This document shows, piece by piece, positions 5,340-37,768 of a DNA stretch of 64,000 nucleotides. Under the pieces are notes generated by a model. That model searched no databases. It had not been told where the DNA came from and saw only the letters and a program-made list of their open reading frames with translations. Position 1 is the first letter of the stretch. Each line of letters opens with the position of its first letter. The DNA is from an uncultured Planctomycetaceae bacterium (GTDB taxonomy: Bacteria > Planctomycetota > Phycisphaerae > SM23-33): contig CAYNYF010000007.1 of the NCBI GenBank assembly GCA_964401385.1, positions 3,206-67,205 of the forward strand, read 5' to 3'. A program made the position numbers and the translations under genes.

Positions 5340-5448
5340 ATCGGCGGCCGATGCGGCCGAGGGCCCCGGCGGAATTCCGCGGCAGGGGGCCCCGAAAAAG
5401 GCGGCACACGGTCAGGCGTGTGCGATCGGAACGAAGGAGGCCCAAGCC

Positions 5449-19000: not shown

Positions 19001-19775
19001 CGCTGCAAGGATACGCGGTGAGGTAGTTCAGCTCGTCGCGGGCGGCGGCGTCGCCGCTAAGGGCGGCCAGCGCCTCTCGCCGCAGCCGCTCGCGGACGCC
19101 CCGCCAGCGGGCCAGCGTCGCGTCGGGATCGGAGCAATCCTGGTCTTCCCAGGCGATGCGGTGGGACATGAGCGTCATCACGTCGCCGACGACGCGCCGC
19201 AGCTCCGCCCGCGCCAGCAGTTCCAGCACGTCCTCGCGGCGCTCGGCCGCGGCCGCCAGGACGGCCTGATCGGCCGCGTCGGCCTGCATCTGGGCGGTCA
19301 CCAGCTCGTCGGCACAGACGGCGAAGTCCGGGTCCACGCCCGCCTCGATTGCGTGCCGCCGCAGCAGCCACGCGCAGAAACTGTGGATGGTGGAGATGTG
19401 GGCGACCGGCAGCTCCGTGATCCAGTCGGCCAGCCGCTGCCGGTCCTCGTCGCTTCGGCTCTGCCGCAGCCCTTCCAGCAGCACCTCCCGCACGCGGGCG
19501 GCCATCTCCAGCGCCGCCTTGTCGGTGAAGGTCAACGCCACGAAGCGCTCGAAGGGGCTCTGCCCGCTGCCGGCGGTCCGCATGACCAGCTCGGTGAAGC
19601 GCCGCGCCAGCACCAGCGTCTTGCCGCAGCCGGCGCCGCTGGTCAACGCCAGGCTGTCGCCGGACCGCTCGACGGCGGCCTCCGCCTGGCGCGGGGTCAG
19701 TCGCGGCAGCCTACTCATGGCCGGCCTCCGAATCCGACTCGCCCGGGCCACTCCCGCCGGTCTTGCTCCGGGCAC
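16059..19775 (-). CDS. addA: ATP-dependent helicase/nuclease subunit A (AddA-type; UvrD-like helicase plus C-terminal PD-(D/E)xK nuclease)
   Basis: Walker A GAGCGKT. UvrD-family helicase motifs (TFTDKAALEM, IHSFC). C-terminal nuclease motif VVDYKSDRL...YELQMMMY. Alternative start at M20 (19718). Overlaps or abuts the addB stop. Confidence 0.85.
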   Translation of the reverse strand: MPGARPAGVARASRIRRPAMSRLPRLTPRQAEAAVERSGDSLALTSGAGCGKTLVLARRFTELVMRTAGSGQSPFERFVALTFTDKAALEMAARVREVLLEGLRQSRSDEDRQRLADWITELPVAHISTIHSFCAWLLRRHAIEAGVDPDFAVCADELVTAQMQADAADQAVLAAAAERREDVLELLARAELRRVVGDVMTLMSHRIAWEDQDCSDPDATLARWRGVRERLRREALAALSGDAAARDELNYLTAYPCSDPADRLLAYREEKLAVIARMLQRPESVAAEDVASLKDKPGGIGGAKAWGGKDARKQFRDRLRDFVGRFAALSVWFEDLGGADAEAARCLATLTALAREAIGRYDRAKRGQGLLDFDDLILRTRRLLRENASVRSGLRKKFSQMLIDECQDTDPHQLEMLWGILTDGESPPPGKIFIVGDVKQSIYRFRGAQAEVFERLCGRFGKARIPLTETFRAHGAGVGLINHVFSRLMGDGYEEIVSSRRELPPGASVEILLADAGEQPNAEAVAVAQADVVAGRIAEIIGRGRTVFDHGKKQWRPARAGDVAILLARRTNSLAYERALRQRGVAYYVVAGTGFFRQQEVYDVLNALRAIDNPFDDVALFGALRSAMFGLNDNVLLHVALAASPPYFQRLAAPEVLAHLAAPQREQLRFARDLLGRLHRGKDALGAAGLIETLLSQTGYAAALLSQFHGRRKLANVYRLLESARSAQSAGRMTLADFVQRYGELVLAESRYEQAAVAGEAEDVVRIMTIHKAKGLEFPVVVVPDLNAGRMGPRGPLLFRRDWGIAYKPPGLVEDDDGGDAAGEPLSYRLAKQAERDELAAEDVRKLYVAVTRHQDHLILVGADWRDRDGRFRDSGSYLAQLDGVLDVAGALERGADRIGYGDGFFARLARITPSAPSRGGGRRRPIGRKMAAAAADASRLADALTRAGKAGELALVGPLPEAGPAGRIAATALVDFAHCPMLYRWRHELRVPVDVLAGGGAGPPSGKLLDAATAGTVFHRCMELVNFDCLRSPRAGEVAAHARSLVGRALAERELSVDPAELAGELTEMLGRLAEHPLLGELCGAGRRLRELSFLFRGPGLDVSGKIDLLYQDAGGDWHVVDYKSDRLAAADVGARAARYELQMMMYAAAAAGHLGQNVADATVYFLRPGRGHSFAVGGAALAGLARRLGELAKNLTRSRRTGRFARRPSGGGAEPCAGCACAGLCGRASQAGRSDV

Positions 19776-22700
19776 GGTGCTTGGCGTAGTGGCAGATCTG
19801 GCGATACGGGCACCACTTCGGGCAGTCGCCGCCCGGCAGGGCGTCGAACCGCCCGGCCCGCATGCCCTGCACGCATCGCCCGACGGCGTTCATCGCAAAG
19901 GCCAGCTTCTCGGGGTATTCCGCATCCTCCTTAATCCGCCCGCGGGACACTCCGACACTGGCGAAATAGCGCTGGGCGTTCTCGCGCACGCCGTGATACG
20001 CCCCGCCGGCGCACGCCCGATCGAAGATCGCCTCCAGTGCCTCGGCGTACAGGGCAAGCTGGAGGTCGCGCCCGCTGAGGATGTCCTTGCCGGCCGGCAA
20101 GCGCCCGGACTTGTAGTCCACCGCCAGCAGGGCCGCGTCCGGTGCGACCTGATCGACGCGGTCGATCTTTCCTTCCAGGCGGATCCGCTCGCCGCCGGCG
20201 TCCAGCTCGACCGGCTCGGGCCTGCTGGCCGGGTCCATCCGCCCGGCCCGCCGCTGGGTGAGGCCGAAGCCCAGCTCGAAGCAGACCGCCTCGGTCGGCA
20301 AGACCGCCTGCCGCTGATCGGCCAGGTACGCCCACAGCATTTCCCGCCAGAATCCGGTCTGGACGTCCCACAAGGCCGAGTACATCGCCCTGTCGGCCAG
20401 CCGGCGCCTCTCGGCCTCGACGGCCTCGGCCAGCAGGGCCCGCAGCTCGCCCTCGTCGGTCTCGGCGAGCTTCACCGGCCCGCCGGCCCGCTCGCGCAGC
20501 GAGGTCATCACCCGCCACAGCACCGCGTGGCAGAAGCTGCCCATCGCCGCCGGCGTCATCCGCGCCTCCGGCTCCACCAGCGGCTCCAGGTGCAGCAGAT
20601 GCCGGGCGAAAAACTGCCAGGGGCAGCGGGCGTAGCTGTTGAGCTGGCTGGCGGAGAAGGTCCACTTGGCGGGAATTCGCTCGCCAAGCCCGGCCAGCAG
20701 CTTCGGATCGTCCAGCCGCCCGTCGAAGGCGTCGACCTCGCCCGCCCGCCAGCGGCGGTCGGCGGCGAAGATGCCGAAGCTGGCGCGGCGCAGCCATTCA
20801 GGGCGGTGCCGCCGGGCCCAGCCCAACAGCGCCGCCGGGCGATACTTGGCCTCCGCCTCGTCGCTGAAGGCGGCGAAGACGGCGGCGTTGAAGGCGTCGG
20901 CCGGCGAGGAAAGCTCATCCGGCGGCGGCACGAACTCGCCCGGGCCGATCCGCTCGCGCCGGCAGGGGGCGCCTTGGCGCTCGCCGGTGGAGGCCAGTTC
21001 CTCCAGGAAGCTGCTGGCGGCATGCGGCCGGCCGGACGCCTCGGCCGTCAGGAAGCTGACGGTCAGGGCCTCGTCGGCCCGCGTCGCCGCCAGGTAGAAC
21101 AGCAGCATCTCCCGGGCGATCAGGTCGCTGCGGCTATCCAAAGCCACGCCGCGGGCGGCCCACGCCAACCGGTCGGACTCGGCGATGAAGCACGTCTCCT
21201 GCGCCAGCCGCGGAAACGCCCGCTCGTTCACCCCGAGCAGATACACCCGCCGGAAGCGCAGCGACCGCCCGTCCAGCACGTCCAGGACTTCGGCAAGCGA
21301 TTCGGCGCGGGCCGGCGGGCAGACGGCCGCCTCGGCCAGGCGCGAGACCAGCTCGGTCAGCTCCTCCGCGCGGCTTCGCCCGGCCGGGGAGAGCGGGGCC
21401 TCCGTCAGGTCCTCCAGCAGCTCGTCGAACGCCCGCAGGGCCCGGAGGTCCGCGGCCACGGACGCGTCGTCCTCGACACCGACCGCGGGCGACTCATCCG
21501 AAATTCGGAGCCTTTCCACCACGGCCGCGGGGAGCTGTAGCTCGCCGATCAGCTCGCGGACGGCCCGGACGTACGCGCCGACGTCCTCGGGCGCGGCCAG
21601 CCGATCCAGCCGCGCCATCAGTGCCGCCAGCATCGCCCCGGCCCGCTCGATGGCTTCGGCGTCGGCGGACAGCGGACCCAAGGCCACCGTCTCCTCGTCC
21701 TCGGCGAACTCCTCGCCGCCGCTTCGCGCGCGATCGGCCAGCCGCCGGAACGCCCGCGAATACTCCGTCCGCCCGCCCAGGACGTTGGCCGTGCGGATGG
21801 CCATCTCCGCCGTCGCCACCGTTGCCGCGTCCAGGCCGGCTCCCAGAGCGCCCGGGCGGAAGTAGCTGTTCCGGATCACCGCCAGCACGTCGTGGAACGC
21901 ATACGCCGGCGGCAGCGACAGCAGCCGCAGGATGAACCGCACCACCCCGCAGGCGTCCAGCCGCGTCGGGCGCGAGGCGACGGGCACGTCGTGGGCGGCA
22001 AAGATCCGCCGAATCGGCTCTTCGTAGCCGCTCAGGTCCCGCGCCATCACCGCGACGGACCCGGGCTCGGCGCCGCCGGCCAGATCGGCCTTGACCGCGC
22101 GGGCGACGGCGCGGACCTCGGCCTCCACGTCGGCTGCGGCCAGGACGGTCACCGAAATCGCGGGCCCGCCCGTCGCGGCCGCGGCGCTTGCCGGCTCGGA
22201 GGCACGCGCTCGCCCTTTCTTGCCGCCGGGCAGGTCAAAGAGGCTCTCGAACGGATCGCCGCCGGGCTCGGCGGCCGTGACTTCCGAGCCGGGAATCGCC
22301 CGGCGAATCCGCTGGAGCGTCCGCTCCGTCCAGAACCACATGCGCCGGCGCCGCGGCTGGGCGGCGAACGGCAGCGTGATGAGCATGCTGTCCACGCGCC
22401 GGGCCAGCAGCGAGAGGATCTCCAACTGCGTCGGGGTGAAGTCGGTGAAGCCGTCGACGCCCACGGCCGCGATGGCGGGATAGCCCAACGGGGCGCCCTC
22501 GTCGCGGGCGAGCACGTCGCGGGCCAGCCACATCAGCCCCTCTACGTCGAAGCGCTCGGCCTTCCGCAGTTGGTCCTGATAGCGCCGATACACGCTCAGC
22601 AGGTCGGCGTCCTTGCCGCTGGACGGGTCGATGGCCTTTGCCAGCGCCTCCGGCTCCACGGCCGCCCGCTTGAGTTCGGCGATGGCCGCGTCCAACGCCG

Positions 22701-23211
22701 TCACCAGCCCCGGGGCGTCGCTCAGCGGCCCCAGGGCCCGCAGCCCGCCGGCGGCAGTGGGGCGGTTGACGATGCTCCAGAGCAGCAGCCGGCGGTGCAC
22801 AGTATTAAGGATGCGGGCGGGCCGGCCCGCGGCAGACAGAATGCCGGCAGCCAGGCCGGCGAAGGTCGTCACCGCCGGCGCGATCAGCACGCCCGTCTCC
22901 GACAGCTCCAGCAGCCGCTGCCGCATGTGGGCGGCGGCCGGGACGTTGGGCACGATCAGAAGGCATCCCGCCCGCCCGAGCTCGTCCATGCGCCGCCGGT
23001 ACAGCTCCAGCACGGCCGTCGTCTTGCCGCACCGGGCCGGGCCGGTCAGTATCGTCACTGACGCCGCGCCCGCGCGCGTCGCTGGCGAAGGCTCCAGATG
23101 CTTTCCCCTGTCCGGCACGCCGATATTGTGGCAGCCCGGCCGGCGTTCCACAAGCCGGCGGAGCGCGGCGGCGGCTTGGGGGTGGATGCGAAAGGCAGTT
23201 GACAATACCAT
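19711..23211 (-). CDS. addB: ATP-dependent helicase/nuclease subunit B (AddB-type, inactivated-helicase plus nuclease with Fe-S cluster)
   Basis: Walker A-like GPARCGKT. C-terminal RecB-family nuclease motif VDYKSGRL...LQLALYA. Four-Cys Fe-S staple (CPWQFF ... GGDCPKWCPYRQIC). Immediately upstream of and overlapping addA. Confidence 0.8.
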   Translation of the reverse strand: MVLSTAFRIHPQAAAALRRLVERRPGCHNIGVPDRGKHLEPSPATRAGAASVTILTGPARCGKTTAVLELYRRRMDELGRAGCLLIVPNVPAAAHMRQRLLELSETGVLIAPAVTTFAGLAAGILSAAGRPARILNTVHRRLLLWSIVNRPTAAGGLRALGPLSDAPGLVTALDAAIAELKRAAVEPEALAKAIDPSSGKDADLLSVYRRYQDQLRKAERFDVEGLMWLARDVLARDEGAPLGYPAIAAVGVDGFTDFTPTQLEILSLLARRVDSMLITLPFAAQPRRRRMWFWTERTLQRIRRAIPGSEVTAAEPGGDPFESLFDLPGGKKGRARASEPASAAAATGGPAISVTVLAAADVEAEVRAVARAVKADLAGGAEPGSVAVMARDLSGYEEPIRRIFAAHDVPVASRPTRLDACGVVRFILRLLSLPPAYAFHDVLAVIRNSYFRPGALGAGLDAATVATAEMAIRTANVLGGRTEYSRAFRRLADRARSGGEEFAEDEETVALGPLSADAEAIERAGAMLAALMARLDRLAAPEDVGAYVRAVRELIGELQLPAAVVERLRISDESPAVGVEDDASVAADLRALRAFDELLEDLTEAPLSPAGRSRAEELTELVSRLAEAAVCPPARAESLAEVLDVLDGRSLRFRRVYLLGVNERAFPRLAQETCFIAESDRLAWAARGVALDSRSDLIAREMLLFYLAATRADEALTVSFLTAEASGRPHAASSFLEELASTGERQGAPCRRERIGPGEFVPPPDELSSPADAFNAAVFAAFSDEAEAKYRPAALLGWARRHRPEWLRRASFGIFAADRRWRAGEVDAFDGRLDDPKLLAGLGERIPAKWTFSASQLNSYARCPWQFFARHLLHLEPLVEPEARMTPAAMGSFCHAVLWRVMTSLRERAGGPVKLAETDEGELRALLAEAVEAERRRLADRAMYSALWDVQTGFWREMLWAYLADQRQAVLPTEAVCFELGFGLTQRRAGRMDPASRPEPVELDAGGERIRLEGKIDRVDQVAPDAALLAVDYKSGRLPAGKDILSGRDLQLALYAEALEAIFDRACAGGAYHGVRENAQRYFASVGVSRGRIKEDAEYPEKLAFAMNAVGRCVQGMRAGRFDALPGGDCPKWCPYRQICHYAKHRARSKTGGSGPGESDSEAGHE

Positions 23212-23276
23212 TGCCGCCCGCGTGCCGATAAAGACAACAACGGCTTTGCGGCCCGCCGGCCGGTAGGAGACAGTGC

Positions 23277-25943
23277 GTGCCCGTTGCGTATTCCGTCGAG
23301 ACCTGCCGGGCGCTGGCCCGGGCCTTCGAGAAGGCCCGGGTGCTGCGCCCGATGCGGATCGGCCGATACGATCCGGGCACGGAGCTCGCGCTGGAAGTGG
23401 CCGGCGTGGCCCCGCGGCGGCGGGCGCGGGTGCGCCTGCGGCTGGAGGAGTTCGTCGGCGGGGGCTTCGCCGGGCAGGTGTACCGGGTGAGAGTCCTCTC
23501 GGCCGAGGGCGAGCACATCGACGGCCTGGAGGTCGACGCCCGCTGCGCCGTGAAGATCCTGCTGCCGCCGTCGTCGGCCAAGCGCAGGTTCCGCGACGCG
23601 CTGTTCCGGGCGGGCTTCCAGGGGGCGTTCGCCCCCCAGGTCAACCCCGCGGCCGCCCGGGCCGGGGCCATCTGGCAGAAGCTCATCCGAAGGGGCGCCC
23701 GGATTGGCCTCGGCGGCGAACGCGCCGTCGTGGACGTGCTGGCGACGTTCTTCGATCCCGGCCTGGGAAGCTGCGGCGAGATCAGCGAGTGGGTCGACGG
23801 GCGGGACTGGCGCTTCGAGGCCGACGACCGCCTGGACGACCGCAAGCGCTGGCTGCGGGGTAAGTCCGTCCCGCCGGAGCGGCTGGGCTCGGCGGAGTAT
23901 CGGGCGAAGCGGGCGTTCATGCAGCGGCTGACGGCGCTGCTGCACGAGATGGGCGCCGGCGAGCTGGCCCGCCAGTACGAATGGTGGACGGCCAAGAGCC
24001 AGCCCAACGTGCTCAAGCGCCGCGGCGACGAAGCCGACCCCGCCGCCGCCCTGACGGCGGTGGACTTCCGCGCCGGGCTGGCGCTGCTGCCGCTGCTGCC
24101 GATGAGTCCGGCCGACGTGAAGCTCATCGGCAAGGGAATCGCCCGCGGATCGCTGGTGCAGTTCGACCGCGGCGACATGGGCAAGCTCCAGCGGTTCGTG
24201 GACGCCCACGCCGCCGACTTCGCCGACCTGGGCGACGCCCTGGACGAGCTGAAGGTCCTGGAGCGGGAGTATCGCGAATCGCTGCCGGACGTGGCCCACC
24301 ATCACGTCCGGCTGCTGTACAGCGGGCGGCTGTGGTCGGGCATTCTACGCGGCATGGTGACGGGCTGGCGGTCCCGCGGCATCGTTGACGACCGCGCCGC
24401 CGACCGCCTGCGGGCAAGCCGCTTCGGCACGATACTCTTTGCCCTGCTCGGCCTGGCGCCGCTGGCGTCGCTGGCGGGCGCCGCGGGCGTGCTGATCTGG
24501 TTCTTGGCGGCGGGCAGGCTGAGCTGGTCCCTGGCCGGCCTGGCCGCGGGCGCGGGCATCGGCCTTGCCCTCATCGCCACGCTGGGGCGGCGGCTGTGGG
24601 GGCGAGCGGACCTGCGCCGGCATTACGGGCGGATGCTGGCAAGCCCCGGCTATTTCCGCCGGGCCGTGCGGGCGCTGGCGGCCGAAATGCTCACCGACTG
24701 GCACCGGGGCGGGCGCGTCAGCGCCGAGCGGGCAATGAAGCTGCTGGGCAGCCCCGTGAGAATCTTCGCCCACACGGTCCTGCTCGCCTGGATGCCGGCG
24801 AGGCTGCATCGCTTCTTGACGGATCGGCGTTTCGCCTGGTCGGCGGTCAAGCGGCTCGTGGCCCGGCCGGTGCGGCTGTACTTCAACCCCGCCCTGCGCG
24901 AGCAGTGGCTGCGCGAGATGGTGGCCGAGGGCCGCGCCAACGGCATGCTCACCGACCAGGAAGCCGACCACATCACCGCCCGCATCCGGGAGCCCTTCAT
25001 CCAGAAATATCTCAAGAGCCTGGCCGTCCACGTCTGCACGCTGCCGGTCACGCAGATCGTCTCGGTGGCGGTGGCGATCACCTACGTGCTGCAACACCCG
25101 GAGCTTTCCTTCTCCGAGGCGACGATCCGGGCGGGGTTGATCCTGGGAGCCTTCCAGGTAACGCCCATCTCGCCGGGCTCGCTGGTCCGCGGGCTGTACG
25201 TGGTCGGCCTGGTGCTGCGCGAGCGGAACTTCAAGGACTACAACATCGCGGTCTTCCTGGGCTTTTTCAAATACATCGGGTACCTGGCCTTCCCAGTGCA
25301 GATGGCGTATCGGTACCCGGCGCTGGCGCGGTTCATGGCCGGGCGGTGGGCGACGGGGGCGGCCCACGTCGTGCCCGTCTTCGGCGAGCGCGGGGCGCTG
25401 CTGGAGCACGGCGTCTTCGACGCCTTCTACAACCGCCTGCTGACGCTGCGGCGGCGGTTTCGGGAAAAGGACGAGGCCCGCCGCGGCCGAAGGCCCAGGC
25501 TTTGGCATCTTCCCCTGTGCGTGCTGGTCGGGCTGGGTGCGTTCGTGCTGATCGAAGTGCTGTTTATGCTGTCCCGCGGCCACGTGCCGGCGCCCGGGGC
25601 GATGTGGTGGCTGGCGGTGTGGCCGCCGCTTCTAGCGGGAGCGGTCGCGGCCGGGGCCGGCGGAGGCGCCGCCGTCAGCAAGCGCATCCTGATGGGCTTG
25701 GGCGTCGGGGTCGCCATGGCGATCGTCTACGGGATTGCCAACACGACCCTGGGCGTGCTCGCGGCGGCCGGACACTCCCGGCCGGGAGGGGCGGGCATCG
25801 TCGAGGCCGGCAGGCTCCTCTGGCCGTTCCTGGTCGGAAGTCTGTGGCGGCTCTTTCTGCTGCCGATCCTGTCCACGCTCGGGGCGTTCCTGGCCGAGAC
25901 GAGGCTCCCCCCGCCGAGGAGATCGCCCGTTCCGGGCGGTTAG
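23277..25943 (+). CDS. membrane protein with N-terminal UbiB/ABC1-like atypical protein-kinase-fold domain (catalytic Asp apparently substituted) fused to C-terminal polytopic membrane domain
   Basis: Gly-rich loop GGGFAGQVYRV. VAIK-like CAVKIL. Hinge VLATFFDPG...EWVDG, compare ABC1 VLVMEWIDG. Catalytic-loop analogue WTAKSQPNVL, compare HADPHPGN. DFG-like VDFRAG. At least 8 predicted TM helices follow in the C-terminal half. Confidence 0.6.
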   Translation: MPVAYSVETCRALARAFEKARVLRPMRIGRYDPGTELALEVAGVAPRRRARVRLRLEEFVGGGFAGQVYRVRVLSAEGEHIDGLEVDARCAVKILLPPSSAKRRFRDALFRAGFQGAFAPQVNPAAARAGAIWQKLIRRGARIGLGGERAVVDVLATFFDPGLGSCGEISEWVDGRDWRFEADDRLDDRKRWLRGKSVPPERLGSAEYRAKRAFMQRLTALLHEMGAGELARQYEWWTAKSQPNVLKRRGDEADPAAALTAVDFRAGLALLPLLPMSPADVKLIGKGIARGSLVQFDRGDMGKLQRFVDAHAADFADLGDALDELKVLEREYRESLPDVAHHHVRLLYSGRLWSGILRGMVTGWRSRGIVDDRAADRLRASRFGTILFALLGLAPLASLAGAAGVLIWFLAAGRLSWSLAGLAAGAGIGLALIATLGRRLWGRADLRRHYGRMLASPGYFRRAVRALAAEMLTDWHRGGRVSAERAMKLLGSPVRIFAHTVLLAWMPARLHRFLTDRRFAWSAVKRLVARPVRLYFNPALREQWLREMVAEGRANGMLTDQEADHITARIREPFIQKYLKSLAVHVCTLPVTQIVSVAVAITYVLQHPELSFSEATIRAGLILGAFQVTPISPGSLVRGLYVVGLVLRERNFKDYNIAVFLGFFKYIGYLAFPVQMAYRYPALARFMAGRWATGAAHVVPVFGERGALLEHGVFDAFYNRLLTLRRRFREKDEARRGRRPRLWHLPLCVLVGLGAFVLIEVLFMLSRGHVPAPGAMWWLAVWPPLLAGAVAAGAGGGAAVSKRILMGLGVGVAMAIVYGIANTTLGVLAAAGHSRPGGAGIVEAGRLLWPFLVGSLWRLFLLPILSTLGAFLAETRLPPPRRSPVPGG

Positions 25944-28696: not shown

Positions 28697-28882
28697 ACCC
28701 GCGGGCCGCTCCGCCGACGGGCAGGCGGCTCTGGATAACCGGCGCCGGAACCATTACGATGGGGCCACAGGATCAGCGTTTCGGGCGCGCGGGCCCGGAG
28801 GTTTCGGGGCAGTTGCCACGGCGACCCGTCAGGAACTCGGCGGCCCGTGACGCCGAATCAGCAAGCGGAAGGGAACCGGATC

Positions 28883-30337
28883 ATGAAACTGCGACCCGTA
28901 TTGTATTGCCTGTTGGCTCATCTGGTGGCGCTGCCCGCGGCCGGGCACGCCCAGACGGCATACTACGCCGTCCTCATGGATGGCAAGAAGGTCGGCCACG
29001 GCACCCACAGCCGCATCGTCGCCGCCGGCAGGGTAACCACCACCGACGTCATGAAGATGACGCTGAGCAGAGCCGGCATGCCCCTGACCATTCGCCAGGA
29101 GGAAATCCACGTCGAAACCGTCGACGGCAAGCCGCTGAGCTTCAAGAGCGTCCAGGACATGGCCATCATGGCCATGGAAATCGCCGGGACCGTGGACAAG
29201 ACCGGCAAGTTGCACATCAAGATCTCCTCCGGCCAGAACAAACAGGAACGAACGATGGACTGGCCCGAGGGGGCGCTGATGAGCGAAGGCCTGCTCCGGC
29301 TACAGAAGGAAAAGGGCATGGCGGAGGGAACCAGCTACACCGTCAAGATGTTCGCCGGGGCGCTGCTGGGGTCGCTGACGGGCCAGGTGCAAGTCGGCCC
29401 GACGCAGGACGTGGACCTGCTCGGGCGCGTCGTGAAGCTCACGGAGGTCAAGACGATCATCCAGGCGCCCACCGGCCAGATGACCTCCACCAGTTACGTG
29501 AACAAGGACTACAAAGCCTTGAAGACGGTCGTGCCCGTTGTCGGCATGAAGGTCGAAGTGATCGCCTGTAGCAAGCAGGCCGCCCTGAGCAAGCCGGAGG
29601 CCTTCGAGGCGTTCGACAAGCTGACGCTGGCCAGCCCCGTCCCGCTGAAGGACGTGCGGTCGGCCAAGTCGATCACCTACCACCTGGCCCCGATCGGCGG
29701 AAAGAAGATCTCCCTGCCCGCCACCGACAGCCAGACGGTTCGGCCGGGGGAGAACGGGACGCTGATCGTGACCGTCCGCTCGATCGCGGCGCCGGCGGGG
29801 TCGAAGTTCCCATACAAGGGCAGCGACGAGGCCGCCCTGGAAGCGCTCAAGCCGACGCGGTTCCTGCAAAGCGACAACCGGAAGGTCATCGCTCTGAGCC
29901 GCAAGGCCGTCGGCGACGCCACCGACGCCGCCGAGGCCGTCAAGCGGATCGAGACCTTCGTCCGCAAATACGTCAGCAAGAAGAGCCTTTCCATCGGCTA
30001 CGCCACCGCCGCCGAGGTCGTCGAGAGCAAGCAGGGAGACTGCTCCGAGCACGCCGTCCTGCTGGCGGCCATGTGCCGGGCGCTGGGCATCCCCGCCCAG
30101 GTGGTCATGGGCATGGCGTACGTGGAGGAGTTCGGCGGGCTGCGGCACGTCTTCGGCGGGCACGCCTGGGCGCGGGCATTCGTCGGCGGAAAGTGGGTCG
30201 ATCTGGACGGGGCGATGAACGGCTTCGAGCCCGGACACATCACACTGGCCGTCGGCAACGGCAACCCGGAGAGCTTCTTCCAGATGCTCACCAGCCTGGG
30301 CTACTTCAGGATCGCCAAGGTCGAGGTCCGGAAATAG
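28883..30337 (+). CDS. secreted transglutaminase-like domain protein
   Basis: Signal peptide MKLRPVLYCLLAHLVALPAAGHA. C-terminal transglutaminase core with Cys (KQGDCSEHAVLLAAMCRALG), His and Asp (FGGHAWARAFVGGKWVDLD). Confidence 0.75.
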   Translation: MKLRPVLYCLLAHLVALPAAGHAQTAYYAVLMDGKKVGHGTHSRIVAAGRVTTTDVMKMTLSRAGMPLTIRQEEIHVETVDGKPLSFKSVQDMAIMAMEIAGTVDKTGKLHIKISSGQNKQERTMDWPEGALMSEGLLRLQKEKGMAEGTSYTVKMFAGALLGSLTGQVQVGPTQDVDLLGRVVKLTEVKTIIQAPTGQMTSTSYVNKDYKALKTVVPVVGMKVEVIACSKQAALSKPEAFEAFDKLTLASPVPLKDVRSAKSITYHLAPIGGKKISLPATDSQTVRPGENGTLIVTVRSIAAPAGSKFPYKGSDEAALEALKPTRFLQSDNRKVIALSRKAVGDATDAAEAVKRIETFVRKYVSKKSLSIGYATAAEVVESKQGDCSEHAVLLAAMCRALGIPAQVVMGMAYVEEFGGLRHVFGGHAWARAFVGGKWVDLDGAMNGFEPGHITLAVGNGNPESFFQMLTSLGYFRIAKVEVRK

Positions 30338-30436: not shown

Positions 30437-31657
30437 GTGTTTGGGCTGCGGAGCCGCGGCATGGGCAGATTCGGCTGGCCAAAGGACGACGACGAGCTGC
30501 TGGCGCAACTCGCCGAGCAGCGCGGCCGCTACGAAAAACTGGTCAACAACATGTCCGACCTGCTGATGCTGATCGAGCCGGAGGGGGTGGTGTCCTTTTC
30601 CAACAAGGGCTCGCAGCTTCCGCCGCGGGCGGCGGCGTATCCGGGCGTGGGAACCCACGCGGCCGATTCCGTCGTCGAGGCCGACCGCCAGGCCGTCCTG
30701 GATGCCATGCAGGACGTGCTAAGCCGGCGCGCGGCGGTGAGGGAGCTGCTGTTCCGCATCCGCGACGGGGCCGGGGGCGAGAGGGTCATCGAGGGAAGGA
30801 TCACGCCCGTCGTCGAAGGCGGCGAAGTGGCCCAGCTTGAGTTTCTCGGGCGCGACGTGACCGAGCGCGAGCGGGCGGCCGAGGCCCTGCGGACGGCCAA
30901 CCAGGCGCTTCAGAAACGTCAGGCCGATCTCCAGCGCGACCTGAACGTCGCCGCCACCATCCACGCCTCGCTGCTGCCGGCGCCGCTTCTCACCGAGCGC
31001 ATCCTGATCGACCTGAAGCACGTCTCGCTCATCGGCGTCGGCGGGGACTACGTCTACATTCATCGCAAGGATCCGCTGCGGCCGGGATTGACCGTCTTCG
31101 ACGTCTCCGGCCACGGCGTCGGTTCGGCCCTGGTAGCCAGTCGGGTCCACTCGGCCGCGTACGCCATCATCAATCAGGGCGCCCCGCCCACAGAGATGAT
31201 CGAGAGGCTCAATCGTTTCATCTACCAGAGCTTCTCGGACCTGGGTATTTTCGTGACGCTGTTCGGCATGCAGTTCGACCTGCTGGCGGGCACGGTCTGC
31301 TACTGCGGCGCCGGGCATCCCCCCGCCCTGCTGCGGAAGGCCGGCACGGGCGAGATCGTCCAGCTCCGGAGCGCCCACCTGCCGATCGGGGTGGAGGCCA
31401 ACGTCTTCATGGGCGAGCCGATGAATCACGTGGACATCGCCCGCGGTGACACCCTCTGGCTCTACACCGACGGCCTGGTCGAGATGCGAAACCGGGCCGG
31501 CCAGATGCTGGGCACCAAGGGGCTGGTCGAACGACTGGCTTCCTTCCGCATCACCGACCCCAAGGCCGGCGTGGCCGAACGCTGCCTCCAGGAAATCCTC
31601 GACGAGCAGGATCCGCCCGAGGACGACGTCACCCTCGTGCTGGCGGCGATCAAATAG
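30437..31657 (+). CDS. PAS domain-containing PP2C/SpoIIE-family serine phosphatase (RsbU-like)
   Basis: N-terminal PAS-like segment. C-terminal PP2C motifs GVGGDYVYI, VFDVSGHGVGSALVAS and LYTDGLVE. Confidence 0.8.
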   Translation: MFGLRSRGMGRFGWPKDDDELLAQLAEQRGRYEKLVNNMSDLLMLIEPEGVVSFSNKGSQLPPRAAAYPGVGTHAADSVVEADRQAVLDAMQDVLSRRAAVRELLFRIRDGAGGERVIEGRITPVVEGGEVAQLEFLGRDVTERERAAEALRTANQALQKRQADLQRDLNVAATIHASLLPAPLLTERILIDLKHVSLIGVGGDYVYIHRKDPLRPGLTVFDVSGHGVGSALVASRVHSAAYAIINQGAPPTEMIERLNRFIYQSFSDLGIFVTLFGMQFDLLAGTVCYCGAGHPPALLRKAGTGEIVQLRSAHLPIGVEANVFMGEPMNHVDIARGDTLWLYTDGLVEMRNRAGQMLGTKGLVERLASFRITDPKAGVAERCLQEILDEQDPPEDDVTLVLAAIK

Positions 31658-31760
31658 CCGGCTCTTGCGGCGGCCGCGAGCCTGCCACGCCGCCGGCAAA
31701 GCGATCTCGGGGGATACCTGAAAAACCGGAAACAAACTCCGTCCTTACACGTCTGAATGC

Positions 31761-31780
31761 GGGAGAGTATAATCTACGCG
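31761..31780 (+). promoter_or_regulatory. candidate -10 promoter element GGGAGAGTATAATCTA about 80 bp upstream of paralog gene 1
   Basis: TATAAT hexamer at 31768-31773. Closely related 14-mer GGGAGTATAATCTA at 62455-62468 upstream of the DUF4160 gene. Confidence 0.3.
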
Positions 31781-31854
31781 CGCTGGGGAACCGGCCGGGC
31801 CGTGGTGCTGGGCAAATAACTTACGGCGAGGCCCCTGTAGAGGAAGGGCCGGCA

Positions 31855-33942
31855 ATGTGCAAGAGCTGTACGTTGAGGCTGCCGTCGCAATCCGCCGAGT
31901 CCGGGCGCACCTGCCCACGCCCGAAGCGCCGCATCCGCCGCGCCGGTCCGCTCCGAGGGTGGGCAGCGCTGGCGCTGCCGCTGCTGGCCGCCTCGGCGGC
32001 CCCGGCACAGCGCCCCGCGCGCAGCGCCCTGCACATCCCGCAGGGCAGGCGGGTCAACTTCACCACCTATCTCAACGACGGCGCCGGATACCGGTGGGAC
32101 ATTCAGTACTACCTCAGCATCGGGCAGGGCACCAACTACATCTATAGCGGCGGGCTGTACTGCCGCATCAGCGGCTCGAACGTCTCCTCCAACGGGCGCG
32201 GCTGGATGAACGCCGCCGGCGACGAAATCGAAATCGGACCCTACAACCGCAACAACTGCCAGATCTACCGTCGATGCAAGGTCTACCGCGATCGGGGGCT
32301 GGCCCGCTGGCTGGACATCTTCGTCAACACCACCGGCTCGGCCCAGACCATCCCCGTCGAGATCTACACTTCCGTCAACGGCAGCGTCTCGGGGGTCATC
32401 AGCTCCTCGGGAGCGGGCAGTTACTCCCCGAAGGACTGGGCCTTCATCACCGAGCACCAACGGGGCCGACCGTCCCTGCTGCACATCGTCTCCGGCCCGC
32501 GGAGCAAGCTGCGCCCGAGTGTTGTTACCCAGGGCTCCAGCATCCGGGTGCGCTATTCGCTGACCGTGCCCGCCCGCGGCACGGTGGTGCTGTGCTACTT
32601 CGAGGGCCAGGGCCGCACCACGGAGGAATTGAAGCGGCTCATGAAGAAGTTCCGCGCCTCCGAGGCCCTGAAAGACCTCTCCCCGGCCGTGCGAAAGCTG
32701 ATCGTTAACTTCCGCACGGGACAAGAGCTGGAAAACGTCGAGCTGGAGCGCAGCGGCACCTCGGACGTGGTCATTCTGAAAAACGGCGACGCCGTCTTCG
32801 GGCGCATGACCAACGAGGGATTCGTGCTGGAGGCCTTCTACGGCAGGCTGATTCTGCCGGCGGGCCAGGTGGTAGGCTTCGCCTGCGTTCCCGGTCAGGA
32901 GGAGCTGGTCCAGGCCGTTCTGGTCGGCGGGCAGGTACTCAGTGGCAAGCTGCAAGAGCGGCTGCTGCACTTCGCCCTGCCCACCGGCGGGGACTTGAAG
33001 ATCCCATTCTCCCGGATCAAGCAGTGCTCCTACCGCATCAGCAAGGAAAAGCCCGCGGAATGGTCGATGATCGACCCGCTGCTGCTGCTGCGAACGGGCG
33101 ACCGGCTGGCCTTCGACCCGGAGCTGCTGAAGTGCACCTTCCAGACCCGCCACGGCACCGTCCCGCTGGACAGCAAGCAGCTTCTGGAGGTCCGCCTTCA
33201 CCAGGGCGGGCACGGCGTCCACAGGGCGGTGTTCCTGAACGGCTCCAAGCTGGCCGGGCTGCTCGGTCCGGAGCAGATCATCCTGCCGCTCAAGCTCGGA
33301 CCGAAGCTGAACATCTCCCGCGACATGGTGCTTGGCATCCGCTTCGCCGCCGAGACCAAGGAAAACCCGGACCTCGCCTGCGCCAGGCTGTCCAACGAGG
33401 ACGAGCTGTACGGGCGGCTCTCGGACGAGGCGTACGTCGTGGTGACGGACTTCGGCACGGTGAACGTCAAGCCGAAGAACGTGGCCGCGATGAGCTTCGA
33501 CGAGGTGGACCCGACGCGGATAGCCATCACGCTGTGGGACGGCTCGAGGCTGCGCGGCCACATTCAACAGGAGGCGCTGCACTTCGAGATCGAGCCCGGT
33601 CCGGTGCTGGACCTGCACGTCGGGCAGATCGTCGCCCTAACCTCGCCGAGAGCCCTGCCGCCGGACGACGTCGTCAAGCGCGTCGAGAAGTACGTGGCCA
33701 TGCTGTCCGCGGCCAGCTACAAGGACCGCGAAGAGGCGCAGCGGCTGCTGGTGGAGATGGGCGGCAAGATCGTGCCGCTGCTGAAGAAATACCTCACCGA
33801 CGCCGACCCCGAGATCCGCCAGCGCATCACCGTGATCCTGGAGCGCATCGGGTCGGAGACGCCAGCCGGGTCCGCGGGCGGCCCGCTTCCGGGGGCATTT
33901 GGACCCCCGATGCCGGGCCCCCGCCAGGTCCTGCTGCGGTGA
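31855..33942 (+). CDS. secreted hypothetical protein, paralog 1 of tandem pair (C-terminal HEAT-like repeat)
   Basis: 695-aa ORF with signal-peptide-like N-terminus (WAALALPLLAASAAPA). Shares about 600 aa of collinear similarity with the next gene (YRWDI, EIEIGP..IYRR, RW.DIF.N, KDW..T, LC.FE.Q.R, L.NGD...G, LHRAVF.NGS.LAGLLG...LKLGP). Ends with LLKKYLTDADPEIRQRITVILERIG. Confidence 0.75.
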   Translation: MCKSCTLRLPSQSAESGRTCPRPKRRIRRAGPLRGWAALALPLLAASAAPAQRPARSALHIPQGRRVNFTTYLNDGAGYRWDIQYYLSIGQGTNYIYSGGLYCRISGSNVSSNGRGWMNAAGDEIEIGPYNRNNCQIYRRCKVYRDRGLARWLDIFVNTTGSAQTIPVEIYTSVNGSVSGVISSSGAGSYSPKDWAFITEHQRGRPSLLHIVSGPRSKLRPSVVTQGSSIRVRYSLTVPARGTVVLCYFEGQGRTTEELKRLMKKFRASEALKDLSPAVRKLIVNFRTGQELENVELERSGTSDVVILKNGDAVFGRMTNEGFVLEAFYGRLILPAGQVVGFACVPGQEELVQAVLVGGQVLSGKLQERLLHFALPTGGDLKIPFSRIKQCSYRISKEKPAEWSMIDPLLLLRTGDRLAFDPELLKCTFQTRHGTVPLDSKQLLEVRLHQGGHGVHRAVFLNGSKLAGLLGPEQIILPLKLGPKLNISRDMVLGIRFAAETKENPDLACARLSNEDELYGRLSDEAYVVVTDFGTVNVKPKNVAAMSFDEVDPTRIAITLWDGSRLRGHIQQEALHFEIEPGPVLDLHVGQIVALTSPRALPPDDVVKRVEKYVAMLSAASYKDREEAQRLLVEMGGKIVPLLKKYLTDADPEIRQRITVILERIGSETPAGSAGGPLPGAFGPPMPGPRQVLLR

Positions 33943-33998
33943 CCGATCTGCCGCCGCCAAAGCGCTGCGGGCTACAACAGGGAAGAATTGCAGAAACC

Positions 33999-36110
33999 AT
34001 GAAACCGACACCCGCACTGAGATTCGCCTTGGCCGTCGCCGTCGCTCTGACGGCGGCGATCGACCCGGCTTCAGGGCAGCGGCCCCCGATGAGCCGGCCG
34101 GCGGCAGCCATTGTAGCTGGCAGTCCTTCCGCCGGCGGCGGCATCCACATCGCCTCGGGGCGGACGACCTCCTTCATGTGGGTCCTGACCGACGCCTCCG
34201 GCTACCGCTGGGACATCTCCAGCAACGGCACCATCTCCGACGGCACCAGCGACGCCTACGACACCGGCATGCAATTGCAGGTCGACGGCGCCAGCTTTCC
34301 CGGCTACAGCACCGGCAAGCTCAGCCAGGACGGCGCCGAAGTCGAGATCGGACCCTGGAAACAAGCCGGACTGGCCATCTACCGCCGCGTCTGCATCAAC
34401 GTCCAGGCCGGCTACTGCCGCTGGATCGACATTTTCGAGAACAGCAGCTCGGACAAGGACGTGACGGCCTCCCTGAAGTACTACTTCAACATGGGCGAAT
34501 CCACCCGCCAGACGTACACCAGCTCCGGCGCGGCGGAGCTGACCGACAAGGACTGGGGCATCGTCACCGCGGGCTCCTCGAGAACTTCCTCGCGCCCGGC
34601 GATCGTGCACGTCTTCGGCTCGCCCGGGGCCAAGTTCAAACCGGCCTTCCAGTTCGACCGCAGCAACGACAACATTTACTATCACGCCAGTATAAAGGTC
34701 CCCGCCGGAAAGACCGTGGCCATATGCTTCTTCGAGGCCCAGAGACGGCCTTACGAATCGGCCGTGAAGTTTCTCAAGGACTTCAAGCCCAGGCGCGAAC
34801 TGGCGCTGGTTCCGGCGCCCCTGCGGAAAATCCTGCTGAACATGACCGGGGCGTCGCTGCTGCTGGGGGAGATCGAGCTGAAGCGCAGCGACAAGTACGA
34901 TCTGGTGAGCCTGCGCAACGGCGACGAGATCCGCGGGCAGATCACCACCGCCAAGTACGCGCTGCGGACCGGCTTCGGGGCGATCGAGGTTCCGGCGGGC
35001 GAGGTGATCGGGCTGGTGAGCCGCTCGGCCGAGAAGGACCTGGTCAAGCTGGTGCTGGCCGGCGGGCAGGTGGTCGCCGGGGAGCTGACCAACGGCCCGC
35101 TCGCCATCCGCCTGCCCGGGGGAACCGAGCTGAAGGTCCCGCCCAGGGGCATTCGCCAGGCGGCCTACAAGATCTCGGAGAAAAGGCCCGAGCAGGTGCG
35201 GACGACCGATTCGCTGGTGCTGCTGCGGCGGGGCGAGCGGCTGGCGTTCGACGACTCCGGGCTGCGCTTTGCGTTCCTGACCTCGCACGGGGCGCTGGAC
35301 CTGGCGGCGGAGGATCTATCCGCCATCGAAATGGACACACCCGGCGGCGGCCTGCACCGGGCCGTCTTCCGCAACGGCTCGCTGCTGGCGGGGCTGCTCG
35401 GGGCTGAGCGGATCGGCCTGAAGCTGAAGCTCGGGCCGTCGGCGGAGCTGCCCAGATGGCAGCTTGGGCGAATCCTCTTCGCCGCCGAGGAACTGGAGCC
35501 GGCGGGCCTGTCCAAGCTCACTCTCCGCAACGGCGACGTCCTGTACGGGACGTTCTCCGACAAGAAATGGGCCATCCAGACCAAGCTCGGCAAGGTGGAA
35601 GTGGTGCCGGCGGACGTTGCCTCCGGCCAGTCCAGCGCCAATTCCCTCGGACACGTCCAGCTCGTCCTTCGCACCGGCACCAAGATCGGGGGCAAGCTCG
35701 CCGACGACTACGTGGGCTTTCAGGTCAAGCCGGGTCCGGCCATGAAGATCTTCGTCGGCAAGATCGGCGCGTTCGTCGGCGCGGAGCCGGCAAAGCCCGC
35801 CACCTCTGAGGAAGCGACCTCCAGCCCCAGCACCCGGACGGGCGCTGCCGACGGCAGCTCCGAAGCGCCCGCCATCGCGGGCAAGGGGCTGCCCGAGCTG
35901 GAGAAACTGCTCAGAGACCGCACGGTGAGGATGGCAGCGACTCAAAGGGCGCTCGCCGAGGTGAAAGCGAAGCTGGCGGCCGTCAACGAAGCCGGCCTGC
36001 GGGAGCAGTTGGCCAAGCAGGCCGGATCGCTCATGGCAGAGCTGAACAAGCTCCAAGCGACTATCGCGCAGATCCGGAAGCAGAAGGCCGTTCTGACCCA
36101 GCGCGGTTAG
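33999..36110 (+). CDS. secreted hypothetical protein, paralog 2 of tandem pair (C-terminal coiled coil)
   Basis: Start at MKPTPALRFALAVAVALTAAIDPASG (signal peptide) inside ORF 33024..36110. Collinear homology with 31855..33942. C-terminal heptad-like region (LEKLLRDRTVRMAATQRALAEVKAKLAAVNEAGLREQLAKQ...). Confidence 0.75.
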   Translation: MKPTPALRFALAVAVALTAAIDPASGQRPPMSRPAAAIVAGSPSAGGGIHIASGRTTSFMWVLTDASGYRWDISSNGTISDGTSDAYDTGMQLQVDGASFPGYSTGKLSQDGAEVEIGPWKQAGLAIYRRVCINVQAGYCRWIDIFENSSSDKDVTASLKYYFNMGESTRQTYTSSGAAELTDKDWGIVTAGSSRTSSRPAIVHVFGSPGAKFKPAFQFDRSNDNIYYHASIKVPAGKTVAICFFEAQRRPYESAVKFLKDFKPRRELALVPAPLRKILLNMTGASLLLGEIELKRSDKYDLVSLRNGDEIRGQITTAKYALRTGFGAIEVPAGEVIGLVSRSAEKDLVKLVLAGGQVVAGELTNGPLAIRLPGGTELKVPPRGIRQAAYKISEKRPEQVRTTDSLVLLRRGERLAFDDSGLRFAFLTSHGALDLAAEDLSAIEMDTPGGGLHRAVFRNGSLLAGLLGAERIGLKLKLGPSAELPRWQLGRILFAAEELEPAGLSKLTLRNGDVLYGTFSDKKWAIQTKLGKVEVVPADVASGQSSANSLGHVQLVLRTGTKIGGKLADDYVGFQVKPGPAMKIFVGKIGAFVGAEPAKPATSEEATSSPSTRTGAADGSSEAPAIAGKGLPELEKLLRDRTVRMAATQRALAEVKAKLAAVNEAGLREQLAKQAGSLMAELNKLQATIAQIRKQKAVLTQRG

Positions 36111-37537
36111 CGCCGGGCGGGGAACGGCCGGTCAAAAAGCTCTTGCATCACGCCGGGGATGTCCTCGCTGCGCAGGGGGCCTTGGATCCGGCCGGCGGTC
36201 GACATGATGAAGGTGGCCGAGTTCCGCCAGTTCAGCCCGCCGTGGGTCGAGGCCATCGTCACCGCCCCGGCGAAGAAGCCCGAGCCGTTGTAGTAGCGGT
36301 CGTCCAGGCTGACGATCACGTCCGGGACATTCTCCGCCCCGGCGAAGTGGGCCCGCCACAGCCGGTACAGGGCGTCGGGATACGGATGCCTGCCGTCGGA
36401 AGTGGCTTTCAGCAGCGACCTGCCGTCGACGCCGCCGGAAGCCAGCTCGGCGAGCTTCAGCGGGTCGCCCTCGATCGGGTCGTACTGGAAGGTCTCACCG
36501 TCGGCGGAGCGGATCCGCGCCTGCCCGTCGCGGCTGGCGACGACCACCGCGTCGCCCTCGGCGTAGCTGACCAGCTCGACGGCATCGGACTCCAGCAGAT
36601 CGGCGGCGAGCCTGGCTACGTTGCGGGCGTTGAAGGCCGCGTACGTCACCAAGCCGAACTTGACCATCGCCACGTCGTTGTCGCCGCGGACGCGGCCGAC
36701 CAGCCGCCAGCCCTTCTCTTTCAAGTGCTTCTCCAAGCCGGCGGGCTTGCAGGGGACGTTGGTCTGGCCGTGGTCGGCGAAGAAGGTGAACTTCACCAGG
36801 CCCCCGCTCTCGTACAGGATCTGAAGCGCCAGCCGCTGGCACTGGCGCAGGGCGTATAGCTGGCCTTCCTTTCCCATGCGCGAGCCCAGGCCGGCGGTGG
36901 AGACCAGATACGTCACCACCTCCATGCGGTCGCGCCGGTCCCACAGGCGCTTGATCTTGTCCAGCTCGACCCGGAACAGCCGCTTCGGGCGCAGATACAC
37001 CAGGGCGTCGTCCAGGGTCGGGCCGCGGTAGTCGATAATGCTCGCGAACGGCTCGTTCTTTCCGCCCAGGTAGTCCCCCGTCCCGCCGACAATTGTCTTC
37101 CTGCTGTGACTGTAGTACTTGGCCTCGTATCCGGCGCACGGCATGTAGCCGAAGGCGTCTTCCAGGGCCAGGTCGGTCATCACCGGATACGGGGGGATGA
37201 CCACGGCCGGAGGGTCGAACAGCCGGAGCTGGCCGGACTCGTAGAACTCCTTGACCACGTCGAAGGGGATTCCGTCCAGCACCACCACCAGGTGCCGGCA
37301 CCGCCGCGGGTCGAGGGCGCGGAGGTGGACGATCCGATCGGGCTGGCCGTCGCCGTCGCGGTCGTATCCGATGCGGTCGATCCTTCCGGACTGATCGAAC
37401 AGGCAGAAGAAGTCCGCCGCCGAGTCACCGTCGGTGTCGTAGCCGGCGAGGGCGGGACTCGTCACGATCGGCTCTTCCGGAAACGTCACCGCCCCCCCGC
37501 AGCCGTGCAGCAGAAACGAAATGATCGGAAGTCCCAT
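36107..37537 (-). CDS. alkaline phosphatase superfamily lipoprotein (type I phosphodiesterase / nucleotide pyrophosphatase-like)
   Basis: Lipobox LLHGCGG after the Met at 37537. Metal-ligand-like motifs FFADHGQTN and ASTHGGLN. Its stop overlaps the paralog-2 stop (TTAG). Confidence 0.75.
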   Translation of the reverse strand: MGLPIISFLLHGCGGAVTFPEEPIVTSPALAGYDTDGDSAADFFCLFDQSGRIDRIGYDRDGDGQPDRIVHLRALDPRRCRHLVVVLDGIPFDVVKEFYESGQLRLFDPPAVVIPPYPVMTDLALEDAFGYMPCAGYEAKYYSHSRKTIVGGTGDYLGGKNEPFASIIDYRGPTLDDALVYLRPKRLFRVELDKIKRLWDRRDRMEVVTYLVSTAGLGSRMGKEGQLYALRQCQRLALQILYESGGLVKFTFFADHGQTNVPCKPAGLEKHLKEKGWRLVGRVRGDNDVAMVKFGLVTYAAFNARNVARLAADLLESDAVELVSYAEGDAVVVASRDGQARIRSADGETFQYDPIEGDPLKLAELASGGVDGRSLLKATSDGRHPYPDALYRLWRAHFAGAENVPDVIVSLDDRYYNGSGFFAGAVTMASTHGGLNWRNSATFIMSTAGRIQGPLRSEDIPGVMQELFDRPFPARR

Positions 37538-37768
37538 CAGCACCCATCCCTTCCATCGAAGCCTCCGAACGGGCCGGCTCCCGCCAGAAACGATCTTGTC
37601 GGCCCTTCCGGCCGGGCCAGCCGGGCGGGCCTCAGGCCGCGATGTCCTGCCGTTACGCATCGGGAGCGTCTCCTCTCCTGAAAGTTCGCCGGATCATCCT
37701 ACCTGCCGCCGCAACCCGTGGCAAAATCATCTTCCCAGCGGTCCGGCCCGCCTGTATTTGTATTCGCC

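Follow-up and report, generated by a model that had tools for sequence, protein, structure and literature searches.

A conserved tandem pair of predicted exported paralogues, with a supersandwich head and a six-barrel array, in uncultured Planctomycetota

Introduction

In GH65 and GH94 enzymes, the N-terminal beta-supersandwich domain is a non-catalytic part of the protein. A supersandwich also makes up the P1 domain of the insertase YidC, where it is inserted between the first transmembrane segment (TM1) and the five-helix membrane core. In YidC P1 a cleft coincides in position with the sugar pocket of galactose mutarotase, and periplasmic molecules have been proposed as its ligands (PMC4252904). 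Here we describe two adjacent genes, A and B, whose products are predicted to carry a head domain of this fold followed by an array of six small beta-barrels. They lie in a stretch of 64,000 nucleotides (hereafter the window) from an uncultured Planctomycetaceae bacterium (assembly GCA_964401385.1, contig CAYNYF010000007.1, positions 3,206 to 67,205). An original prediction, made from the letters of this DNA, had singled them out as a tandem pair encoding secreted proteins of about 700 amino acids (aa) and of no family that could be named.

The closest described proteins each share one part of this architecture and lack another. GH65 and GH94 phosphorylases, and the phosphorylase domain of cyclic-glucan synthase, have the same fold as B over residues ~50-280, including the helical linker after the sandwich (7fe3, 8ho7, 8rfe, 3qde, 1v7v and 1h54; Foldseek E 2e-6 to 1e-4), but B lacks their (alpha/alpha)6 catalytic barrel, the part that carries the catalytic acid and the phosphate site: both confident models show residues 285-595 as all-beta. 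P1 of Escherichia coli YidC (3blc, 3bs6, 3wvf), which is exposed beyond the inner membrane, shares the beta-supersandwich as well (Foldseek E 3e-5 to 6e-4, TM-score 0.43-0.47 normalised to the P1 chain); unlike YidC, A and B have a cleavable-looking signal peptide, and no membrane core appears in the B model. Giant proteins with thrombospondin type 3 (TSP3) repeats, like those of CglD and MtsD, contain the same head domain with the same core residues, but they are devoid of the six-barrel array, whereas A and B are devoid of TSP3 repeats (Pfam). Such repeats are calcium-binding. Conversely, a set of Laminin_G_3 proteins possesses a C-terminal six-barrel module as in A and B (25-31% identical), with one or two ConA-like lectin domains in place of the supersandwich head. 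We regard A and B as a family that is new and uncharacterised but draws on fold types already known.

Results

The two genes are transcribed in the same direction and are arranged as follows.

31855..33942, + strand: gene A, A-type paralogue with a HEAT-like tail, 695 aa
33999..36110, + strand: gene B, B-type paralogue with a coiled-coil tail, 703 aa

Their products align over 613 aa with 34% identity and 52% positives (BLASTP, E 2e-115), which bears out the prediction of a same-strand pair of paralogues. The shared motifs that had been listed with it (YRWDI, EIGP..IYRR, RW.DIF.N, KDW, C.FE.Q.R and LHRAVF.NGS.LAGLLG) fall in columns that are invariant, or nearly so, among 60 family members.

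Pairs were counted in a scan with one genome per species, which gave 59 loci, all in metagenome-assembled genomes (MAGs) of Planctomycetota. Loci were classified by tBLASTn and typing of open reading frames (ORFs), on a total of 60 loci, among them two context loci that had been retrieved by looking up the exact protein. An A-type gene followed by an adjacent B-type gene on the same strand was found in 47 of the 60, and most of the loci without this arrangement are at contig ends. Homologues thus occur as ordered tandem pairs, with a median gap of 45 bp between A and B (range -25 to 239). The full-length pair was found in Planctomycetota MAGs only, mostly labelled Phycisphaerae. Two of the 47 paired loci contain an extra A-like copy, so that three family genes (A, A-like, B) stand in tandem (L002 3691-9998 and L028 5788-11764). 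The middle copy of L002 is placed beside the B clade in the tree described below, and not within the A clade; an IS200-like Y1 transposase gene is found just upstream of the family genes in this locus.

A neighbour-joining tree was built from 110 core sequences. The 57 B-types all fell into one clade devoid of A-types, and 52 of the 53 A-types into another. Identity was 42-44% within each type and 32% between types. The separation into two clades indicates that the duplication is older than the sampled lineages.

Neither Pfam nor NCBIfam contains a family covering the ~600 aa shared by A and B, and PDB sequence searches, with A alone or with a profile of the 60 sequences, returned only spurious coiled-coil matches. 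The heads of A and B, taken in isolation together with two giant-protein heads, had no match in Pfam or NCBIfam even at E≤10. Homologue searches gave 163 relatives for B and 205 for A, and the source of every one is a metagenome or MAG with the label Phycisphaerae, Planctomycetales or Planctomycetota. Their names are “hypothetical”, “PT domain-containing” or “HEAT repeat domain-containing”, and the Pfam domains on record for them amount to an occasional PF13646 on A-types, and none among B-types. A broad literature search found nothing relevant to the family. Two things had been predicted on this point: that the proteins could be placed in no named family, which these searches support, and that the family is unknown, which stands at the sequence level and gives way at the level of fold, the N-terminal domain being a supersandwich of the GH65N, GH94N and YidC-P1 kind.

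The architecture was deduced from an AlphaFold2 model of B, built from the 60-sequence alignment with a mean pLDDT (predicted local distance difference test) of 87.6. Residues 1-45, which include the signal peptide, are disordered; residues 50-250 and 285-593 are all-beta. Helices are found at 252-261, 264-268 and 273-276, in the linker between the two beta regions, and at 631-661 and 665-702, in the tail.

34146..34748, + strand: N-terminal beta-supersandwich of B (aa 50-250), AlphaFold2 model, pLDDT mostly >90
34752..34841, + strand: helical linker of B (aa 252-281), AlphaFold2 model
32029..32616, + strand: N-terminal beta-supersandwich of A (aa 59-254), by alignment to the modelled B domain
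32617..32712, + strand: short helical linker of A (aa 255-286), by alignment to B helices 252-276

In Foldseek comparisons the head of B matched the N-terminal domains of GH65, GH94, GH116, GH149 and GH161, cyclic beta-1,2-glucan synthase and YidC P1, at E 2e-6 to 1e-3 and over 245-337 columns. In sequence searches, A and B had no Glyco_hydro_65 or GH94 Pfam match at E≤1, and no YidC match in Pfam or NCBIfam or PDB sequence match. Taken together, Pfam, NCBIfam and the Foldseek comparison of the model placed the proteins with confidence in none of the characterised enzyme families, an outcome that would have spoken against the original prediction had it been otherwise.

Thirteen head residues are kept in both A-types and B-types (D65, W71, Y87, E114, R129, R130, R141, W142, N148, D185, H204, C243 and Q248), and seven of these (D65, W71, R129, R141, N148, D185 and Q248) are also common to 40 head copies from giant proteins. 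Within those 40 copies R129, R141 and N148 never vary, and conservation of D65, D185 and W71 is 90-97%. Such a set of conserved polar and aromatic residues would be compatible with a ligand site. The two types differ systematically in one loop, residues 80-92, which reads [NS]DGTNDAYDGGMQL in B-types, a form also found in many giant-protein copies, and GQGTNYAYSGGLYC in A-types, where three Asp are lost relative to B-types. B reads DGTNDAYD in this loop where A reads QGTNYAYS, and the A head is the derived version. Head positions 132-140 likewise differ by type.

The region that follows the linker is made of six small beta-barrel units.

34851..35783, + strand: six small beta-barrel units of B (aa 285-595), three copies of a two-unit module
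32725..33645, + strand: six small beta-barrel units of A (aa 291-597), by alignment to the B array

Modelled separately, residues 283-600 of B gave a pLDDT of 93.2 and a pTM (predicted template modelling score) of 0.86, from which we predict that the array behaves as a single rigid body. Each unit, of ~45 aa, has four strands followed by a 3-10 turn and then a fifth strand. In profile-profile comparisons (hhalign), units 1, 3 and 5 were mutually alike (probability 95-98%), and so were units 2, 4 and 6 (93-94%), which makes the array a triplicated two-unit module. A Foldseek comparison of its sub-model with the PDB and BFVD gave nothing at E≤1e-3. The strongest match was local and weak, to the double Tudor domain of KDM4A (5d6y, probability 0.85, E 0.08), and low-TM matches to beta-propellers and to MORN or Tudor proteins were not considered meaningful. 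By inspection only, the units resemble the small barrels of SH3, Sm and Tudor proteins in their five-strand pattern, their 3-10 turn and their grouping in pairs. However, no Pfam match or significant fold match links them to small beta-barrel families, and the six-unit array has no solved counterpart.

Beyond the array the two proteins diverge, as had been predicted.

33655..33852, + strand: conserved HEAT-like tail of A (aa 601-666), ...SYKDREEAQ..L..MG..IVPLLKKYL...DPEIRQRI..ILERIG
33853..33939, + strand: Pro/Gly-rich end of A, with a short hydrophobic-basic finish (QVLLR)
35784..35888, + strand: low-complexity disordered linker of B (aa 596-630), pLDDT <50 at 606-625
35889..36107, + strand: C-terminal coiled-coil-like helices of B (aa 631-703), AlphaFold2 model

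Residues 614-668 of A match HEAT_2 at E 3.2e-4 and 21.4 bits, below the cut-off of 27.7, and the HEAT-like tail is about one and a half repeats long. Nearly all A-type relatives share a consensus of ~65 aa in this place (LPP...V.KLV..LGAESYKDRQ.A...L..MG..I.PLL.K.L...DPEVRQRI...LE.LG). A precomputed PF13646 match is recorded for 7 of the 120 A-type relatives listed (of 205), and one relative is named for its HEAT repeats. A Pro/Gly-rich stretch comes after the HEAT motif in most A-types. Among 36 long A-type tails, 25 finish with a similar hydrophobic-basic stretch (QVLLR, RLVR, MIIRR, RFGCKG), a loose pattern that could be a docking strand or a sorting cue. In B, the long helices modelled at 631-702 come after the disordered linker. 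B-type relatives have Pro/Thr-rich linkers at the position of B 596-630, and roughly two thirds of them have an Ala/Lys/Glu-rich helical tail, whose sequence is unconserved; the tail of B itself had no meaningful match in Pfam or NCBIfam.

Both proteins begin with what looks like an export signal, in agreement with the signal peptides first proposed.

31960..32007, + strand: hydrophobic core of the export signal of A (aa 36-51, WAALALPLLAASAAPA), after an Arg-rich stretch
33999..34076, + strand: signal peptide of B (aa 1-26, MKPTPALRFALAVAVALTAAIDPASG)

Using a home-made criterion (a basic stretch, then a hydrophobic 12-mer with mean Kyte-Doolittle value ≥1.8, ahead of the head), such N-termini were found in 52 of 53 A-type and 56 of 57 B-type relatives. 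No lipobox, membrane core, outer-membrane barrel, surface-anchor or sorting domain was seen in A or B with Pfam, NCBIfam and the B model.

The head and the array were both encountered outside the pair. A profile search over 1.84 billion representative proteins yielded 2,912 proteins at E≤1e-3, 683 of them at E≤1e-30. The top matches include proteins of 2,100-6,000 aa that contain the head only, repeated 3-8 times. In the three giant proteins that were scanned (P0189, P0229, P0257), heads alternate with TSP3_bac repeats, and VWA, Big_7 or Glucodextran_B domains are present as well; Ig-like domains are found too. One giant head-repeat protein is from Thermoanaerobaculia. The suggestion that the genes are specific to a lineage thus agrees with where the full-length pair was found, but does not hold for the head domain.

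The array was found in the Laminin_G_3 proteins mentioned above (in L032 and L046, and P0226). These begin with a hydrophobic stretch and come with or without about eight HEAT repeats, which are N-terminal, unlike the C-terminal tail of A. A homologue search with the six-barrel module of a LamG protein gave one match only. The LamG proteins of L032 and L046, or HEAT+LamG proteins, are clustered with a solo B-like copy, in a second locus that is present in four MAGs (L032 8504-20807, L046 9923-15585, and equivalents in L034 and L039). In this locus the solo copy adjoins ClpB, and is followed by a protein of ~284 aa with a weak C-terminal match to ExbD/TolR, just under the cut-off (E 5e-5). The L032 locus has an additional, separate HEAT-repeat protein. 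A 683-aa ORF that precedes the solo copy in L039 was considered and is unrelated to the A/B family.

A further arrangement is a protein of 1,302 aa, P0250 (L062 6001-9909, seen on two contigs), which contains two complete head-plus-array units and an A-type HEAT motif at its end. It belongs to another lineage, and is 24-26% identical to A and B, its halves being 33% identical to each other. In L062 a gene for an ECF sigma factor precedes it, and genes for a 603-aa protein, a MoxR-type AAA+ ATPase and a large TPR/PQQ-repeat protein follow; the 603-aa gene was found unrelated to the A/B family.

Clustering of the neighbourhoods of the 60 loci left only housekeeping genes as recurring neighbours (HAD phosphatase in 16 loci, hisC in 10, ClpB in 5), and a conserved partner gene beside the pair was rejected for this reason. 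Only the four closest relatives share the order found in the window, which runs transglutaminase-like gene, pair, 517-aa gene, ADH, URO-D. The conserved unit is the A-B gene pair alone, so that the “system” of the original prediction reduces to these two genes, with flanking genes kept only among close relatives. The transglutaminase-core gene (28847-30337, + strand; PF01841, E 5e-21) encodes an N-terminal hydrophobic stretch, and precedes the pair in L001, L002 and L010 as it does in the window. Between it and A, in the window, sits a PAS-SpoIIE phosphatase gene (30437-31657).

The convergent neighbour (36107-37660, - strand) encodes a 517-aa protein with a possible lipobox, LLHGC. Orthologues 63-68% identical occupy the same position in L001, L002 and L004. 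The protein had no Pfam match at E≤5, no NCBIfam match at E≤1 and no PDB sequence match, and no Pfam match is on record for its L001 and L002 orthologues, so that its earlier attribution to the alkaline phosphatase family finds no support in sequence. Its stop codon, TAA, is the complement of 36107-36109, and B stops with TAG at 36108-36110, which makes up the 4-bp convergent overlap that had been reported.

Upstream of A, a promoter-like sequence was located.

31744..31773, + strand: sigma-70-like promoter match, CTTACA-18 nt-TATAAT, 10/12, a consensus match only

The TATAAT, at 31768-31773, is 82 bp 5' of A, where the original prediction had placed it. It was the sole sigma-70-like match within 31400-36400, where shuffled sequences average 0.3. 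A may start downstream of 31855; some orthologues are called 24 aa shorter. For B the start was taken as the ATG at 33999, within a longer stop-to-stop frame, and a database copy of the protein (P0001, 100% identical) is called 10 aa shorter. G+C ranges from 65 to 78% across the window, at which level long antisense ORFs are expected over the A/B stretch, and these were disregarded. A scan of the window against Rfam at gathering threshold found no RNA family.

Two other places in the window deserve mention. A very long ORF (5083-11622, + strand; ~2,000 aa from the first plausible start) begins with membrane-spanning-looking hydrophobic segments, and contains more than 1,000 aa of Gln/Ala-rich low complexity (AAQQAQ...) and a short (GEESGQG/GQESGHG)n repeat. 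Its composition accounts for the 73-78% G+C and the strong A-over-T skew at 6-12 kb. ARAGORN called a tRNA-Phe (GAA) at 20830-20907 (+ strand), within a 1,309-aa stop-to-stop ORF of the minus strand (19711-23640), and Rfam at gathering threshold reported nothing at this position. Either the tRNA call is false, or the ORF is not wholly coding.

Discussion

The interpretation that we favour, tentatively and at somewhat less than an even chance, is that A and B form an exported hetero-complex which binds a glycan or another envelope polymer. The two genes would constitute an operon for two exported paralogues of common architecture, whose products would come together as a hetero-oligomer outside the cytoplasmic membrane. 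Ligand binding would be the role of the supersandwich heads, with a glycan or some other envelope polymer as the likeliest ligand, and the barrel array would serve as a rigid spacer or an assembly module. The tails would give the subunits different contacts, the coiled coil of B promoting oligomerisation and the tail of A docking to a conserved partner. We infer the complex, its location (periplasm or surface) and its ligand from two main observations. The strict, ancient and ordered pairing, together with the type-specific tails and the existence of a fused version, suggests that A and B work as one assembly. The presence of many heads per protein in the giant TSP3/VWA proteins, and the replacement of the head by lectin domains in others, suggests that it is a binding module, which is much more likely than an enzyme.

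Several observations weigh against this interpretation. The fold likeness of the head rests on 8-14% identity. The solo B-like copies show that a B-type protein can apparently stand alone, and P0250 may derive from an independent duplication rather than from a fusion of A and B. The variable housekeeping neighbours (HAD phosphatase, hisC, ClpB, ADH, URO-D) offer no functional anchor, and the family comes exclusively from MAGs and metagenomes.

If A and B were instead independent paralogues with parallel or redundant roles, their adjacency would result from the joint inheritance of tandem duplicates, and no complex would form. The full set of conserved head residues is kept in both, and the solo copies of four MAGs (L032, L034, L039, L046) and the three-copy loci (L002, L028) point the same way. 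However, order and adjacency have been kept down to ~42-44% identity within types, while the other neighbours changed, and the separate clades, type-specific tails and type-specific head loop suit a division of labour better than redundancy. We consider independent roles unlikely.

A second possibility, that A and B are carbohydrate-active enzymes, with a head that is catalytic as in galactose mutarotase or that is the remnant of a GH65/GH94-type phosphorylase, draws on the fold matches to the five GH N-terminal domains (GH65, GH94, GH116, GH149, GH161) and on the invariant acidic, basic and aromatic residues of the head. Yet the place of the (alpha/alpha)6 catalytic barrel is taken by six small beta-barrels, no glycoside-hydrolase Pfam family matches even at E≤10, and the supersandwich, as is generally known, is a non-catalytic domain in GH65 and GH94 structures. 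Moreover, a giant TSP3 protein can contain up to 8 copies of the head, a degree of repetition typical of binding modules. An enzymatic role is thus quite unlikely.

A and B would act outside the cell in a third reading, as components of an extracellular adhesin or of a surface matrix, released or displayed, rather than of a periplasmic scaffold: the head is common to giant adhesin-type proteins with TSP3, VWA and Ig-like domains, and the Pro/Thr-rich linkers and coiled coils of B-types are common in surface proteins. We regard this as rather improbable too, since the searches and the model showed neither a lipobox nor an outer-membrane barrel, nor any recognised domain for surface anchoring or sorting, and since the pair is typically single-copy, of ~700 aa per protein and located among housekeeping genes, whereas adhesin loci are usually variable and multi-copy.

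It is highly improbable that A and B belong to a larger secreted module together with two neighbours, the transglutaminase-like protein encoded upstream and the convergent 517-aa protein: the transglutaminase-like gene, A and B, the 517-aa homologue and ADH do follow in the same order in L001, L002, L004 and L010, and both neighbours start with a basic then a hydrophobic stretch (translations, by inspection), but the other ~45 loci with an A/B pair lack this synteny, and it therefore looks like gene order inherited among close relatives.

Coming back to the hetero-complex, a bolder version can be drawn, which we think very unlikely to hold as a whole. A and B might form a heteromeric, periplasm-spanning scaffold of Phycisphaerae, with heads that grip the cell wall or an envelope glycan, an array that acts as a new assembly module shared with lectin-headed partners, and a structural job such as tethering, spacing or a division-related task. 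If true, this scaffold would do a job that other bacteria do with unrelated proteins, and would be a lineage-defining envelope machine of the uncultured Phycisphaerae-type Planctomycetota.

Two unnamed modules are defined by this work, a supersandwich head shared by some 2,900 representative proteins, giant adhesin-like ones included, and a six-barrel array for which no solved counterpart exists. Their carriers, the Planctomycetota, are a mostly uncultured group whose cell biology is poorly known. The ordered pair has been retained through a long period of Planctomycetota evolution while its surroundings changed, and this makes it a good candidate for a core component of their envelope.

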